A DNA stretch of 64,000 bases from Candidatus Sysuiplasma jiujiangense (GTDB lineage: Archaea; Thermoplasmatota; Thermoplasmata; Sysuiplasmatales; Sysuiplasmataceae), in NCBI GenBank assembly GCA_019721075.1, contig JAHEAD010000009.1, positions 29,888-93,887 of the forward strand, written 5' to 3'. Numbering within the stretch: the stretch's first letter is position 1; each line of letters opens with the position of its first letter. This document shows, one piece after another, positions 8,454 to 30,040 of this stretch. The notes under the pieces are model-generated. The model did no database searches. It was not told the origin of the DNA and worked only from the letters and a program-made list of their open reading frames with translations. The position numbers and the translations under genes are program-made.

Positions 8454-8493
8454 ACATTCACGTAAATGTCGGTGAACCGATATTTACGTGAAT
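8454..8493. repeat. 13-bp perfect inverted repeat CATTCACGTAAAT / ATTTACGTGAATG around a 14-bp near-palindromic spacer, inside the AT-rich region downstream of the truncated serine recombinase
   Basis: Seen directly; candidate recombinase crossover or binding site. Confidence 0.5.
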
Positions 8494-8776
8494 GCGCAAT
8501 AATGTTCTTCAATTTCTTTTGTGCTCCACAAGATACCGCTGGAAATGCACGGAGCGGCGCCGCACGGATTTTAACATTGTGTATCGCGAAAGCAAATTTA
8601 TTCATTCATGTAATGGCACAACTGCAGGGGCACAACCGCCGTTTCACACATTTCAACATCAAGATGAATGGATAAATGATATGAGCAATTAGCATAGATC
8701 GAATATCGTGTCATTCACAGTTTGTCACGTCGCATGCTCTCAATGACCGTGATTTATGCGCTGCGTCATGCAATCG

Positions 8777-10193: not shown

Positions 10194-10379
10194 TTTAGCA
10201 CGCATATGTATTAGATAAAATTAATTATGTTCGACAAGAACTTCGGTGGCAATACGAAATCTGATTACGGATTAACGAGCAGGGATTGTGCATGCCTGCG
10301 AAACAACCTGACAGCTCTGATTCTTCAATCCTCACCCTGGCGGGATTGTCCGCATACAGAGATTTTCACACATATATAG

Positions 10380-10520
10380 ATATATGTCTATAAATCAAAT
10401 ATTAAAATGCATATAATTCAATATAACATTAACTACAATTTAATATTAATATAAAAGTTTTAAATTAACATAAAATATTAAATATAAATTAAATATATAT
10501 TGCCATATAACAGTGATTTA
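10380..10520. repeat. Extreme AT-rich low-complexity block with reiterated AATATTAAA/TAAATATA units, upstream of the GH15 gene
   Basis: Base composition and short degenerate repeats seen directly. Confidence 0.5.
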
Positions 10521-25101: not shown

Positions 25102-26247
25102 GTGTTTTCATTGAAGGAAAGGACGGAGCGCACTATCGGGCTGATAACCAACCCGATCGCTGGACTCGGAGGGAGCAAGGCGCTCAAAGGAACAGACGGC
25201 GAGCTGGCCCGGCGTGCCATTTCAATGGGTGCAGGTGGGAACGCTGTCAGGAGGACTTTCGAGGCACTTGCATCCCTGATAGATATTCTGGATGACAACG
25301 ACATTGATCCGCCTAAGATACTCAGCTGCCATGGGCCAATGGGGGAAGCGGCCCTGCTCCGCTCACGATATCCGAATTACTCAGCGGTTTACTCATATGA
25401 GGGCAAAACATCCTCTGGTGAAGATACCAGACTCGCGGCAGCCGTGATGGAGGCAATGGGGGCATCCATCATTGCGTTTGCAGGCGGTGACGGAACGCTG
25501 AGGGATGCGTCAGGAGGCATTAGAAGGAGGACACCGTTAATCGGTATTCCCTCCGGCGTAAAGATGTATTCCGGAGCGTTTCTACGTAAACCTGAATTGT
25601 TTGGTCAATCCATCCTGGGCTGGTTTGAGTCCGGCTGCCCTACAAAGAGTGTAAATATGCTGGATTTCGAGGACATTGCTGAAGGAAACATCAGCGTCTC
25701 AAACTATGGAACCGTCATCTCACCAATGCTGGAGACCGTCCAGCAGTCCAAGGAAGAGACGATCGGTGATGAGGATAGTAAGCAGGATATTGCAGAATAT
25801 TTCATCAGTACGATGGACGATTCCTTGACATACCTGATGGGTACCGGCTCTACTGTGAAGGAAATAGTGAAAGAAATGGGGTACAGGACGCATGTCCTGG
25901 GAGTCGACGTGTTCATGGGAAGGAAGATGGTATGCGCCGATGCCACAGACAGCATGATTGCACAGGCTGTTGAAAATGCGGGTCCAGGTAAGGTGCGGAT
26001 AGTTGTCACGCCGACAGGCGGCAGCGGATTCCTGTTCGGAAGGGGAAACCAGCAGTTTACACCGGAAATGCTGAAGGAAATTGGCAGAGAGAACATAATC
26101 GTGCTCTGCACTCCGCGCAAACTGGAATCCATCGGAACAATCAGGATCGACACGGGTGACAGGGAGGTGGACAGGACGCTCAGCGGAAACTATGAAGTAA
26201 TAAAAGGCTTCGGCATAAGGAGGATAACACATATAGGCAGCGAGTGA
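25102..26247 (+). CDS. ATP-NAD kinase-like protein (COG3199-type predicted polyphosphate/ATP NAD kinase)
   Basis: AGGDGTLRDASGGI (GGDGT) diacylglycerol/NAD-kinase-like motif; ~380 aa. Confidence 0.5.
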   Translation: MFSLKERTERTIGLITNPIAGLGGSKALKGTDGELARRAISMGAGGNAVRRTFEALASLIDILDDNDIDPPKILSCHGPMGEAALLRSRYPNYSAVYSYEGKTSSGEDTRLAAAVMEAMGASIIAFAGGDGTLRDASGGIRRRTPLIGIPSGVKMYSGAFLRKPELFGQSILGWFESGCPTKSVNMLDFEDIAEGNISVSNYGTVISPMLETVQQSKEETIGDEDSKQDIAEYFISTMDDSLTYLMGTGSTVKEIVKEMGYRTHVLGVDVFMGRKMVCADATDSMIAQAVENAGPGKVRIVVTPTGGSGFLFGRGNQQFTPEMLKEIGRENIIVLCTPRKLESIGTIRIDTGDREVDRTLSGNYEVIKGFGIRRITHIGSE

Positions 26248-26253
26248 GATGCG

Positions 26254-26739
26254 ATGTCGCCAAAAAGTCAGCCAGCAGGAAAAGTCGGCGAAATAAGGTG
26301 CTGGGCAATATGCCATTCTACAGAAGATGAGCATAAAGTCGAAATGGCGCTCCGAAATGTGGTTGGATCTGAAGCCGCGATTGAGCATGTTCGTACTGAA
26401 ACGCACTTCGGGCAGCCGATGTCAATTATCTCATGCAGATTAAGCGGCGGAAAGAAATTTTCCGAAATTTTGAGCAGGTTCTCCGCTGAAGATATTGAAA
26501 CACTCCTAGGGCAGCTCGAGGAAAGGCTTGACAGTGACAATACATTTCACATCAGGCTTGATAAACAGCAGACATATGAAGGCGAGCCGAAACTGTCATG
26601 CAGCTTTGATCCAGTGACGCGCAAGAAGAGGGACAGCATAGATCTCGATATACACTTCACCACGTATCCGTCCAGGAGAGAAAATGCAATCAGGTTCATA
26701 GAATCGCTGTTGAGAAAAAATGATTTGGAGCAGGGGTAG
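26254..26739 (+). CDS. Hypothetical RNA-binding-like protein (COG1325-like, predicted exosome-associated)
   Basis: 161-aa ORF 6 nt after the previous gene. Its stop codon lies inside the first 10 nt of tRNA-Leu. Confidence 0.45.
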   Translation: MSPKSQPAGKVGEIRCWAICHSTEDEHKVEMALRNVVGSEAAIEHVRTETHFGQPMSIISCRLSGGKKFSEILSRFSAEDIETLLGQLEERLDSDNTFHIRLDKQQTYEGEPKLSCSFDPVTRKKRDSIDLDIHFTTYPSRRENAIRFIESLLRKNDLEQG

Positions 26740-26814
26740 CCCAGCTTGGCCAAAGGCGCAAGGCTTAGGACCTTGTCCAGCAGTGGTTCGCCGGTTCAAA
26801 TCCGGCCCCCTGCA
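26730..26814 (+). tRNA. tRNA-Leu(UAG), class II with long variable arm; CCA not encoded
   Basis: Hand fold: acceptor GCAGGGG/CCCCTGC, discriminator A, anticodon stem CAAGG/CCTTG, loop CTTAGGA, 14-nt variable arm, T-arm GCCGG-TTCAAAT-CCGGC. Confidence 0.85.
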
Positions 26815-27748
26815 CTGGGACGATTGTTCGACCTGTTTAGAAGCGGTTAATCCCTCACTGATATTTGGATCATCATTGGCTTTTTTGAACTGATGAACGA
26901 ACTGGAGTTGCATCAGGATACCGGTTCTACGTAATCATGATGCAAGGAAGAGTGTGACGGAGAGATTAAAGGCTCTTCAGGACAGTCGAATGACGACAGT
27001 CGAACTCAAGATGCCCGTCATTGACGGAATACGCACAAAGGATGTGAACAAAGTGGCACCGCTTAAGGGTTCATGGCGACATCATCGATCGCAAAACCGC
27101 TCTTCCTCGAAGGACTGGTGAAGCTGCCCGGTGCAAAGCTGACATTCGGCGGCGCGGTCAGCAAGGCAGGGCTGCGGAGGTTCGTGATCTCGATATGGTC
27201 GACCGTTGAATTGAAGAACTGCCCCGAGGATACGTTGCATTATCGTAGCGTTCGCAGGCTTGTAGAAGAAGCAGTTGATGGCACATTCACCAGCTACTCC
27301 AGCGTAACGCACGGCAGCAGGGATTAGTTTCAGATAGCACTGAGATACGGCCAAAAAACGAGTCCAGTGCTCGTGCCTGTGTATCAGTCGTATGCTCTCG
27401 AAATCATTGAACTTGATGTCACAACCTGAAAGCAGAGCCTGTGCTATCTGTCCCTGTTGATCAATACTCCTGATCTTCTCCGGACAGCTTACCGATGGTT
27501 CCGATTGCCCTGGAGGTATCCGGGTCCATCGTTGACAGGCACTCTTAGATGAAAACCGCGAGCATCATCAGCAGTTCTTTGAATGCGCGCAAATAGCGTT
27601 TAGTGAGATTTCAACTATCACAACAGAACAACGCATTTTATCTTCCTTCCTCACCATTACCTGCGCGATCGGTTTTGCGACGGATTCACGGGCGCATCAC
27701 GAAGAGATGTGCCTGGTTTCGGCTCAAGCGCAACTGAAAGCAGTTAAA

Positions 27749-27774
27749 TATAGGTATGTAAATACTTACTACTA
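27749..27774. promoter_or_regulatory. Perfect 26-bp palindrome AATACTTACTACTAGTAGTAAGTATT ~50 bp upstream of the RHH-fusion gene; candidate RHH operator or centromere-like site
   Basis: Verified base by base as its own reverse complement. Confidence 0.6.
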
Positions 27775-27824
27775 GTAGTAAGTATTAAGTAATTAGCTAT
27801 CACTGATCATTACCGGCGATTTCC

Positions 27825-28346
27825 GTGAATGAAAAGGTAAGCATATCCCTTGATGAAAATATAATCAAACTCATAGATGCCGAAAGGGGAGATGTACCCA
27901 GAAGCAGGTACATAGAGAACCTGCTCAAGACTGCCGGCTCGCTTTTTGAGGCTCTGTGGATATTTTCAGACGAATTTGAAAGTGTTACAAAAATGGAGAG
28001 ATGGCTCGCAGCTCACGCTTCGCAGCCACTGGGGAGACCGCTGCACAAGCATGAAGGGTACCTCTCCGTTACGGATAATGCACTGCGCTTTTATAACGAT
28101 AAAATGGATCTTCTGTTTATTATCGAAAAGCGTTCAATCCTGAATATGAGCGTGAGTTACGATGAGCAGTTCAAAAGATTCAGAGACTCGCGCGGACTCA
28201 TACCGCCGCTCAAGCTGGAGCTCGATAACAGGATTGTGTATCTCTTCACCAAGACCATAGGCAGGAAACGGCTGGGAGGGGGGTGGATGTTCAGAGGAGA
28301 GAATGAAGCTCTGGAAATGTGGTTTAAGGGCTTTCCGCAGCGCTGA
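27825..28346 (+). CDS. Ribbon-helix-helix (CopG/Arc-like) DNA-binding domain fused to a ~130-aa uncharacterised C-terminal domain
   Basis: N-terminal beta-strand then two helices: VSISLDENIIKLIDAE...RSRYIENLLK. The C-terminal part has no recognised motif. Confidence 0.55.
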   Translation: MNEKVSISLDENIIKLIDAERGDVPRSRYIENLLKTAGSLFEALWIFSDEFESVTKMERWLAAHASQPLGRPLHKHEGYLSVTDNALRFYNDKMDLLFIIEKRSILNMSVSYDEQFKRFRDSRGLIPPLKLELDNRIVYLFTKTIGRKRLGGGWMFRGENEALEMWFKGFPQR

Positions 28347-28685
28347 ACTGTTCGGTTCTGCCGCGGCGGAGTTATTACGCTGCAATGAAGAGTACATACT
28401 GATCGGCAAAGGAACAAGACCGGCCCATAAGTCGTCAGCTCGTCAGCGCCACCGCAACATTTGTGCTGCCTGGCAACGGCGCAGTGAGAGGCTCACACAC
28501 TGTCTATTGGAAAAACGGCAAATTCATCCATGCGTCAGAATGCCACCTGCACCTGTCAGGGCAACAGCAGACAGGTTGTCGATTTCACAGACAGCATATT
28601 CAGGTGCTGAATGAGATCAAACCGGTTTGCTCCCTGCCTGCTTAGCGGGGATAGGGTTTCGCCCTACCCGGATTCAATACCTGAT

Positions 28686-29450
28686 TTACTGGAAATTGAA
28701 ATATGGACCGCCGATTGTGAAGAGCGAGGCCTGCATGAATCCGGATTCCTGCTGGGGGGGCGTCAGCGTGACGTCTGCTTCCTGCTGCACATTTCCCATT
28801 GAAAGGATATCGTAACGGAGTTCCTCCGCTATGTCCGAACTGAAGTACTGCGTAATCTGGTCGTTTATGTGCCTGCAGACGGAGAGTATTATCTTGGATA
28901 TTCCCTCCTGGACTATTCTGAAACCGTCCTCCAGCGTGATTTCATCCGAAAGCTCGGTGAGTTTATTGTTGTCTATGACAACAATCGCATCCGAGATGGA
29001 TTTCAGTTCAGCAATTGTCTTCTCGCACTGCGACCTGGACTCCTCGACAAACGGTCTTATACCAATCGAGACAACAGTGATATCCATTTCCTTTGCCGCC
29101 CTTGCCACGACAGGCGCAACACGTGAGCCGAAGGTTCCACCGAGGCCGGTTACAACAAATATGATACCTGCGTTGACTATCTTTGCCTTTATTGCCTCAA
29201 GGTACAGCTCTTCGACAGCGTCAATATCCTCCGGCCTGATCAGGAGCGCAGAACTGCAGGCGACAGAGCAGAGTCTGTCCTGATTGTCATTGACTGCGAC
29301 TGTCTCAATATCGGGGTGTTCCCAGTACAGCCGTTCAGCAATGTTCGTTCCGGCGCCGCCGCAGCCGACGACGCTCACTCTAGGTTCTCCGATTCCGCCC
29401 ACAATGGATACATCCATCCCTTCCTGGGTGAAGTCACCGAATTCAGACAT
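28686..29450 (-). CDS. FtsZ/tubulin-superfamily GTPase, minimal form (GTPase core through the T7 region, no C-terminal domain); FtsZl1- or TubZ-like
   Basis: T1 loop VVGCGGAGTNIAERL (cf. FtsZ VIGVGGGGNNAVNRM), degenerate tubulin signature VTGLGGTFGSRVAPVVARAAKE (cf. GMGGGTGTGAAPVIA), VVSIGIRPFVEESRSQCEKTIAELKSISDAIVVIDNNKL (cf. VVTKPFSFEGRKR...LIVIPNDKL), and a T7-like INDQ. It ends ~60 aa later at 254 aa. Confidence 0.8.
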   Translation of the reverse strand: MSEFGDFTQEGMDVSIVGGIGEPRVSVVGCGGAGTNIAERLYWEHPDIETVAVNDNQDRLCSVACSSALLIRPEDIDAVEELYLEAIKAKIVNAGIIFVVTGLGGTFGSRVAPVVARAAKEMDITVVSIGIRPFVEESRSQCEKTIAELKSISDAIVVIDNNKLTELSDEITLEDGFRIVQEGISKIILSVCRHINDQITQYFSSDIAEELRYDILSMGNVQQEADVTLTPPQQESGFMQASLFTIGGPYFNFQ

Positions 29451-29562: not shown

Positions 29563-29964
29563 CTAGTGCTCGCGGTCCACTTGCACCAGTCTTTCCCTGG
29601 AGTCGCATATGGAATCAATGGTTTTGTCGAGCCTGCTGTCCTTATTTATGGTGTGGTTCTTCAGAATGAAGTATGCAGCCTCATTCTCATCCACGAAGTA
29701 CCCTCCTCTCACCATCTCTTGGAGGACATGCATGACTGCAGGCGCGGCAACAATCTTGATCACTCTTCTGTTCTCAGGCGCCTCGTTCGCAGTGCCTGCG
29801 ACGCTACCATCTTCTTCGAAGATAAAGCGCCTGATCGCCTCTCGAGCTAAATGAGATCTGCTCGCAAATTCCGTGTGCGATTCAAGGAATTTGTCGATTG
29901 TCTTTATCTCATTGTCGTCGAGACGAAGAGAAATCCTGTTGTCCACCATTGTGCCCTTCTCCAT
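29563..29964 (-). CDS. Ribbon-helix-helix (CopG-like) DNA-binding protein with a ~70-aa C-terminal extension, immediately upstream of the FtsZ-like gene
   Basis: RISLRLDDNEIKTIDKFLE...SRSHLAREAIRRFI RHH pattern; 112-nt gap to the FtsZ-like gene on the same strand. Confidence 0.6.
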   Translation of the reverse strand: MEKGTMVDNRISLRLDDNEIKTIDKFLESHTEFASRSHLAREAIRRFIFEEDGSVAGTANEAPENRRVIKIVAAPAVMHVLQEMVRGGYFVDENEAAYFILKNHTINKDSRLDKTIDSICDSRERLVQVDREH

Positions 29965-30010
29965 CGGATATTCGCAGGGATGACATAACCTTCAATTTAT
30001 ATTTAATACT

Positions 30011-30040
30011 TTTGTCATGCGTCGTACGAAGTATGACAAA
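30011..30040. promoter_or_regulatory. Extended imperfect palindrome TTTGTCAT-GCGTCGTACGAAGT-ATGACAAA upstream of the RHH/FtsZ-like operon (just beyond a TATA-like TTAAATATAAA on the minus strand)
   Basis: 9-bp perfect arms flanking a CGTACG-centred core. It sits in the intergenic region between the ECF S-component 3' end and the RHH gene start. Confidence 0.45.

Follow-up and report, generated by a model that had tools for sequence, protein, structure and literature searches.

A perfect 26-bp palindrome in a Thermoplasmata archaeon, probably the autoregulatory operator of a gene for a 173-aa RHH/PH-like protein

The locus described here raises the question of what a perfect 26-bp palindrome is doing ahead of the gene for a 173-aa protein, and which protein, if any, binds it. 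It might serve as an operator, either for the product of that gene or for another factor, as a centromere-like site for a nearby gene pair, or as a structural element. The window, by which we mean the whole 64-kb stretch that was analysed, is chromosomal DNA of a Thermoplasmata archaeon and carries housekeeping genes.

The palindrome and its departure from chance

The initial annotation had placed the palindrome at 27749-27774. The exact self-complementarity of AATACTTACTACTAGTAGTAAGTATT was confirmed, but those coordinates lay 12 nt too far to the left, and the single copy of this sequence in the 64-kb window occupies 27761-27786. It belongs to neither strand, is made up of two 13-nt arms, AATACTTACTACT and AGTAGTAAGTATT, and is not extendable, being flanked by an A on either side (27760 and 27787). 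An ATG at 27825 had been given as the start of the gene, ~50 bp away. The dyad centre does lie 51 nt upstream of that position, with 38 nt between the 3' edge of the palindrome and the start codon, but the codon at 27825 is GTG, and a nearby ATG, at 27829, does not share the frame of the 173-aa ORF.

By sequence and shuffle statistics, the 26-bp palindrome is not a chance product. Among the other perfect palindromes of the 64 kb, arms reach 7 nt at most. Over 300 shuffles that preserved dinucleotides, the longest arm ranged from 6 to 12 nt and never reached 13 nt (0/300), and the analytic expectation for such a palindrome is 0.001-0.0016 per window. The tetranucleotide at the dyad centre, CTAG, is depleted ~10-fold in the window (25 observed vs ~250 expected), and the palindrome therefore runs contrary to the compositional bias of the genome. 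Further copies were absent from the 64-kb window even with up to 3 mismatches allowed. A search for the half-site had been proposed from the outset; run within the window, it found TACTTACTAC only inside the palindrome, together with one overlapping match with 1 mismatch. Strain-level contigs of the same lineage (L057-L059) carry an identical palindrome.

Across the whole window, GTAC and TTAA were each under-represented ~2.3-fold while GATC and TCGA were not, and the scarcity of CTAG, GTAC, and TTAA may reflect restriction-modification pressure or a repair bias. Inverted repeats were also observed elsewhere in the window. The one at 8455-8494, which sits in a long intergenic region, has 19-nt arms (CATTCACGTAAATGTCGGT and ACCGATATTTACGTGAATG) that are 95% complementary and separated by a 2-nt spacer, and a very AT-rich intergenic stretch at 10360-10510 contains several overlapping imperfect inverted repeats with arms of 17-36 nt.

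Conserved units and the core promoter

Orthologous loci from Thermoplasmata and co-occurring archaea were drawn from collections of genomes and metagenomes or located through exact-protein look-up, and 23 non-redundant orthologous promoters were compared in an anchored alignment. The alignment contained one conserved block of ~37 bp, with a mean of 1.06 bits per column compared with 0.09 upstream and 0.32 downstream and with the consensus AGTAGTAA-TA-TTACTACT-AGTAGTAA-AAGTATTAAT. The block contains an inverted pair of units, TTnCTACT/AGTAGnAA, often a third AGTAGnAA unit, and, abutting the pair, a BRE/TATA-like box, AAGTATTAAT. When a unit with at most 1 mismatch over 7 scored positions was counted as kept, the left inverted unit (TTnCTACT; in the window TTACTACT at 27766-27773, plus strand) was retained in 17 of the 23 promoters and the right unit (AGTAGnAA; AGTAGTAA at 27774-27781, plus strand), which is the one next to the box and the best conserved, in 18. 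The distal AGTAGnAA unit was present at 9 of the 23 loci, where it precedes the right unit by 18 bp; in the window, GTATGTAA at 27754-27761 on the plus strand, degenerate and out of register, resembles it weakly and may be its remnant. The centres of TTACTACT and AGTAGTAA are ~8 bp apart in inverted orientation, which fits at least 2 subsites at a spacing of ~7-11 bp. Mirror-symmetric covariation at position +/-6, looked for as a sign of constraint on the dyad, held in only ~6 of 11 core-bearing loci. Farther upstream, over 930 bp compared all-against-all with blastn, nothing was found in common between lineages.

The specificity of these units was assessed in 469 kb of sequence, comprising the 64-kb window and 3-10 kb around each ortholog; additional targets, amounting to a regulon, may lie elsewhere in the genomes. 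Single AGTAGNA 7-mers occurred there at the chance rate (203 observed vs ~229 expected), all 26 clusters of at least 2 such units within 22 bp (26/26) were at promoters of the 173-aa-gene family, and the core CTACnnGTAG was found only at promoters of that family in the sampled sequence. The element follows the 173-aa gene even though the neighbouring genes vary at almost every locus. The initial annotation had allowed that the palindrome might prove to be a generic repeat unrelated to RHH genes; it did not behave as one in the 469 kb sampled, since the window holds no other copy and the clusters are restricted to the family's promoters. The motif was absent at homologs without the RHH N-terminus. 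GTAG units were also missing at the more distant RHH-bearing homologs L014, L015, L017, L019, L024, and L037, so the link between motif and gene is not traceable across the whole family.

The palindrome might instead be a structural nucleic-acid element, such as a hairpin terminator, a stem-loop in the 5' leader, or a cruciform or recombination site. A hairpin of 11 bp could form at the palindrome (DNA minimum free energy -7.3 kcal/mol, z-score -2.5), and one ortholog carries an IS607-like insertion close to the site, but the stem is weak and AT-rich with no T-tract, no terminator was predicted at the site, and there was no Rfam match. Decay of the left unit in the L031-L036 clade has removed the pairing there, while the right and distal direct units persist; it is therefore the short sequence units, and not the pairing potential, that have been conserved. 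Compensatory changes preserving the stem were not seen in the ortholog alignment, and the site keeps a set distance from the start codon that follows it, not from any upstream gene. A structural role is accordingly one that we regard as very unlikely.

The units are closely tied to the predicted core promoter of the regulator's own gene, which the site overlaps. The BRE/TATA-like box of the window, AAGTATTAAG (27780-27789, plus strand; ortholog consensus AAGTATTAAT), overlaps the right arm of the palindrome. The palindrome had been described as a promoter element, and it does lie within the promoter, but it is not a separate one, as its right arm (AAGTATT) forms part of the putative core promoter. 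The box is kept in nearly all orthologs, and its distance to the start codon is fixed among them. In the L031-L036 clade, AAGTATTAAT begins 31-32 nt ahead of the ATG, a leaderless geometry, and elsewhere it begins 38-45 nt before the start codon, with a short leader containing a GGTGA or GAGG Shine-Dalgarno sequence. Genomes of Thermoplasmata are assigned to the leaderless type (PMC6028130). The box contains a TTAA(A)T core that is also found ahead of other genes in the window. The form it takes here, TATTAAG, differs from the local TTAAATA type. A second TATA-like string, GTTAAATATAG (27743-27753, plus strand), resembles the TTAAATA-type boxes of the window and is a candidate alternative promoter from which transcription, if the string were used, would start near the dyad centre. 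It is not conserved in L026, the nearest ortholog.

The 173-aa protein and its predicted control of its own promoter

The gene downstream of the palindrome (27825-28346, plus strand) encodes a protein that belongs to no Pfam family and has a probable RHH domain at about residues 1-39 and a PH-like domain at about residues 40-170. A set of 5.8 billion proteins contained 34 homologs, and the annotation of a Thermoplasmata MAG includes a protein with 99% identity. A HMMER scan of 1.84 billion cluster representatives gave 147 matches at E <= 1e-3, but many of the low-scoring ones were long repeat proteins sharing only an HKH motif and were treated as spurious, which leaves a small true family. The viral contigs of IMG/VR yielded no relatives, and a viral or plasmid origin was rejected on that basis.

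The N-terminal sequence, KISISLDENIIKLIDAERGDVPRSxYIENLL, is probably an RHH, with every assignment falling below curated thresholds. Pfam RHH_1 matched 6 of 23 family members below threshold (best E 0.015) and RHH_3 matched 2, and a profile of the N-terminus compared with the PDB found the RHH antitoxin Rv0298 (E 0.012) and NikR (E 0.82). The NCBIfam model of a MazE-family antitoxin aligned with residues 4-36 (E 2.7e-4) at 21 bits, compared with a cutoff of 65. Alignment of the same profile by hhalign to an approximate CopG sequence gave a probability of only 11.7%, and a PDB profile search with the whole protein returned marginal matches only. In the AF2 monomer (mean pLDDT 73), helices at residues 11-21 and 26-39 follow an unmodelled N-terminal strand region, with the N-terminus poorly modelled (pLDDT 42-62).

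The C-terminal domain has a PH-like fold and contains the invariant, His-rich motif AHxSQPxGKPLHKHEGY, also written AH(T/A)SQPxGKPLHKHEGY. In the Bathyarchaeota homologs (L023, L025, and L052-L055) the RHH is replaced by an AbrB/MazE head (PF04014; 34.8 bits vs a cutoff of 24.7), and in others (L018, L020-L022, and L042-L049) the PH-like domain stands alone. One-component regulators typically swap small dimeric DNA-binding heads in this way while the attached domain is conserved, and the alternative heads support a putative role in DNA binding for the N-terminus of the 173-aa protein. A literature search combining RHH, PH-like, and archaea found no paper, and a regulator family joining an RHH or AbrB head to a PH-like domain appears to be undescribed.

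Taken with the conservation of the units, these features suggest that the palindrome is, with fair probability, the operator through which the 173-aa RHH/PH-like protein controls its own promoter, and that this control is probably negative. The initial reading of the palindrome as an RHH operator is in this respect supported by comparison, with the core and the box fixed upstream of the orthologs and a product that is probably an RHH protein. From sequence we infer that the gene's own product binds, in what stoichiometry and with which effect on transcription, and that AAGTATTAAG acts as BRE/TATA. A two-stranded beta-ribbon from each RHH dimer would enter the major groove of a single GTAG-type unit. 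Two such dimers, associated as a dimer of dimers, would cover the inverted pair TTACTACT/AGTAGTAA, and the distal AGTAGnAA unit of other lineages would take a third. Occupation of the right unit would hinder the binding of TFB/TBP and so repress the gene (negative autoregulation), and repression is expected because the right unit abuts, and in the window's genome overlaps, the BRE/TATA-like AAGTATTAAG. The PH-like C-terminal domain may serve in oligomerisation and/or in receiving input from a ligand or partner.

The sign of this regulation is uncertain, because archaeal activators also use sites upstream of BRE. Under autoregulatory activation, or a dual switch, a weak TATA box would depend on the regulator, bound just ahead of BRE, to bring in TFB/TBP. 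The conserved units do lie upstream and not downstream of the TATA-like box, from where sites often activate, as with Ptr2, TFB-RF1, SurR, and TrmBL1, and the departure of TATTAAG from the local type would suit a weak box. However, the right unit abuts the box and overlaps it in the window's genome, a 2-bp deletion has altered the helical phase with the gene retained, and the characterised autoregulating RHH proteins repress (PMC5569661). The tolerance of this lineage for a 2-bp shift between operator and TATA would fit occlusion better than stereospecific activation, and we consider activation or a dual switch unlikely.

Negative autoregulation of this kind would have precedents among archaeal RHH regulators. 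SvtR (SIRV1), F55 (SSV1), and ORF56 (CopG) of pRN1 each bind inverted or tandem repeats in the promoter of their own gene and repress it (PMC5569661; PMC3869888). Their repression operates through competition with TBP/TFB, and, as at the present locus, their repeats adjoin or overlap the BRE/TATA/start region just upstream of the RHH gene (PMC5569661; PMC3869888). These three are RHH-only proteins of 50-60 aa from viruses and a plasmid, whereas the putative regulator described here is chromosomal, 173 aa in length, and equipped with a PH-like C-terminus, and the AGTAGnAA repeat unit of the site predicted here is unrelated to the SvtR, F55, and ORF56 repeats.

The comparison with bacteria is similar. 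Bacterial RHH operators, in the account that Schreiter and Drennan reportedly gave in 2007 (cited in PMC5569661), have inverted or direct subsites of 7-9 bp whose centres are ~8-10 bp apart, are bound cooperatively, and overlap the promoter. Like the operators of Arc, MetJ, CopG, and omega, the present site has at least 2 short subsites, each expected to take one RHH dimer. Unlike in those cases, the occluded factors would be TFB/TBP rather than sigma-70 RNA polymerase, and the arrangement of a distal direct unit, 10 bp, and an inverted pair differs from those of bacterial RHH operators. The protein recalls NikR in joining an N-terminal RHH to a folded C-terminal domain that possibly senses a ligand and holds dimers together, but its C-terminus is PH-like and not the ACT-like NikR_C, a metal-binding domain that was looked for in the 173-aa protein and not found, and its half-sites are adjacent whereas those of NikR are ~16 bp apart. 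Type II antitoxin genes as a rule have a palindromic operator in their promoters. The 173-aa protein is like them in that its N-terminus best matches RHH antitoxins and its relatives carry AbrB/MazE, and unlike them in having a conserved, folded C-terminal domain of ~130 aa and not a short toxin-binding tail. No conserved toxin-like partner gene was found up- or downstream of the 173-aa gene, which is monocistronic and stands in variable contexts.

As a cis element the palindrome is ordinary, probably one more palindromic RHH-type autoregulatory operator of a known class. What makes it valuable is that a sharply footprinted site comes together with an uncharacterised regulator family whose RHH and AbrB heads are interchangeable. 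To our knowledge, almost no transcription factor-operator pairs have been described from the largely uncultured archaea of acid mines and hot springs. The site and the 173-aa protein are small enough for direct testing in vitro, and the pair would offer Thermoplasmata a well-delimited case of control exerted where BRE and TATA begin.

Neighbouring genes and the growth of the palindrome to 26 bp

Upstream of the palindrome are genes for phosphoglycerate mutase, DUF6015, NAD kinase, and an RNA_binding-domain protein, and a tRNA-Leu (26730-26815), from which the palindrome is separated by a 945-bp stretch (26816-27760). Neither a credible ORF nor an Rfam match was found in this spacer, and its folding was ordinary (z = 0.15); the last two results led to the rejection of a divergent non-coding RNA within it. 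An att site at the tRNA-Leu was likewise rejected, as the 3' end of the tRNA is not repeated near the palindrome. In L026, the only ortholog locus with the synteny of the window, the matching interval is ~115 bp and the 945-bp stretch is absent. The minus strand of the spacer has a 22-aa ORF whose ATG, near 27636, is preceded by a strong Shine-Dalgarno-like string, GGTGAGGAAGG. The intergenic regions upstream of orthologs in other genomes are also unusually long (420-760 bp), and the NAD kinase gene (25102-26247 in the window) is missing from the corresponding place in L026.

On the other side, the downstream neighbour of the 173-aa gene is convergent and follows after a gap of 340 bp. This is a short FtsZ/tubulin-family gene (28686-29450, minus strand) encoding a GTPase domain only, of 254 aa. 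Upstream of it is the 133-aa RHH gene (29563-29964, minus strand), beyond which lie ECF transporter genes. From comparison with L026, the second ATG (MVDNRISL..., ~128 aa) appears to be the true start of the 133-aa gene. The 133-aa protein matches CdrS weakly (E 0.0057), and by sequence the pair looks like a cdrS-ftsZ2 locus, a conserved cell-division operon of archaeal chromosomes (PMC7439475). The promoter of the 133-aa gene has a palindrome of its own at 30003-30040, TTTGTCAT-N14-ATGACAAA, which differs from the 26-mer and is directly followed by AAAGTATTAAATAT (BRE/TATA-like AAAGTATTAAAT). Both RHH genes of the window thus share one layout, a palindrome and then immediately a BRE/TATA-like box. 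In L026, an FMN_bind_2 gene (7549-8166 of L026, against 28347-28685 of the window) lies between the genes for the RHH/PH-like and FtsZ-like proteins.

The initial annotation had offered, as another possibility, a centromere-like site for this adjacent cassette. The cassette would then be a partition system similar to TubZRC or ParR/parC. A short tubulin/FtsZ-family gene and an RHH gene do lie nearby, both on the minus strand, but the proposal is contradicted by synteny, by the palindrome that the pair itself possesses, and by the likeness of the pair to cdrS-ftsZ2 (PMC7439475). The FtsZ-like/133-aa pair is adjacent to the site only in the species of the window, with its strain-level copies, and in L026, whereas more than 20 other loci keep the palindrome with the 173-aa gene alone. 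There is moreover one small site without an iteron array and with no more copies in 64 kb, and the context is that of chromosomal housekeeping genes and not of a plasmid. A centromere-like function has, in our view, hardly any likelihood.

The same neighbourhood raises the possibility that the palindrome is an operator at the promoter of the 173-aa gene but is bound by another factor, either the CdrS-like 133-aa RHH protein or a global regulator. The 173-aa protein scores as an RHH only below threshold, and a second RHH gene is 1.7 kb away. On the other hand, the motif cluster is confined to promoters of the 173-aa gene in the 469 kb, across unrelated neighbourhoods, it is missing at homologs without an RHH domain, and the 133-aa gene has its own, different palindrome. 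Binding by another factor, although possible, is less parsimonious than binding by the gene's own product, and we judge it improbable.

Comparison of the promoters indicates that the conserved dyad is ~16 bp with an optional third unit, and that the perfect 26 bp are a lineage-specific elaboration. In L026, which has 85% identity, the site reads AATAGTTACTACT/AGTAGCAAAAGTATT, and nucleotide homology between it and the window resumes 5 nt before the palindrome. Relative to L026 and all outgroups, the window has lost two A residues from the gap that separates the box from the right unit, and relative to L026 it has two substitutions, G to C on the left and C to T on the right. The 2-bp deletion and both substitutions all raise the symmetry, and because of them the box now contributes its first seven bases to the right arm, with a mirror copy in the left (AATACTT/AAGTATT). 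This perfection may have arisen by selection, for tighter or extended binding or for a mirrored promoter, or by chance. The mirrored AAGTATTTAC on the minus strand is another candidate for an alternative promoter.

A wider and more speculative proposal, to which we give a minority chance, is that the RHH/PH-like proteins, the AbrB/PH-like proteins of Bathyarchaeota, and the PH-like-only proteins form one undescribed family of one-component regulators, in which the PH-like domain would sense a ligand or partner and the GTAG-unit operator would be autoregulatory. In the lineage of the window, the 26-bp dyad might under this proposal act as a symmetric, bidirectional promoter-operator that also fires into the 945-bp spacer.

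To the right of the dyad, at 27774-27801, the sequence falls into 7-bp periods (AGTAGTA/AGTATTA/AGTAATT/AGCTATC) that recall the heptad iterons of omega-type RHH proteins; because it stems from the 2-bp deletion, this periodicity is confined to the lineage of the window. An IS607-like element comprising a serine resolvase and a 480-aa TnpB/MJ0013-like gene was observed in a 69% ortholog (L028, 5317-7325, and L029), where it has inserted downstream of the TATA-like box and ahead of the start codon. L030 represents the uninterrupted allele, in which the operator is intact and reads ATTGCTAC-AA-GTAGCAAT.
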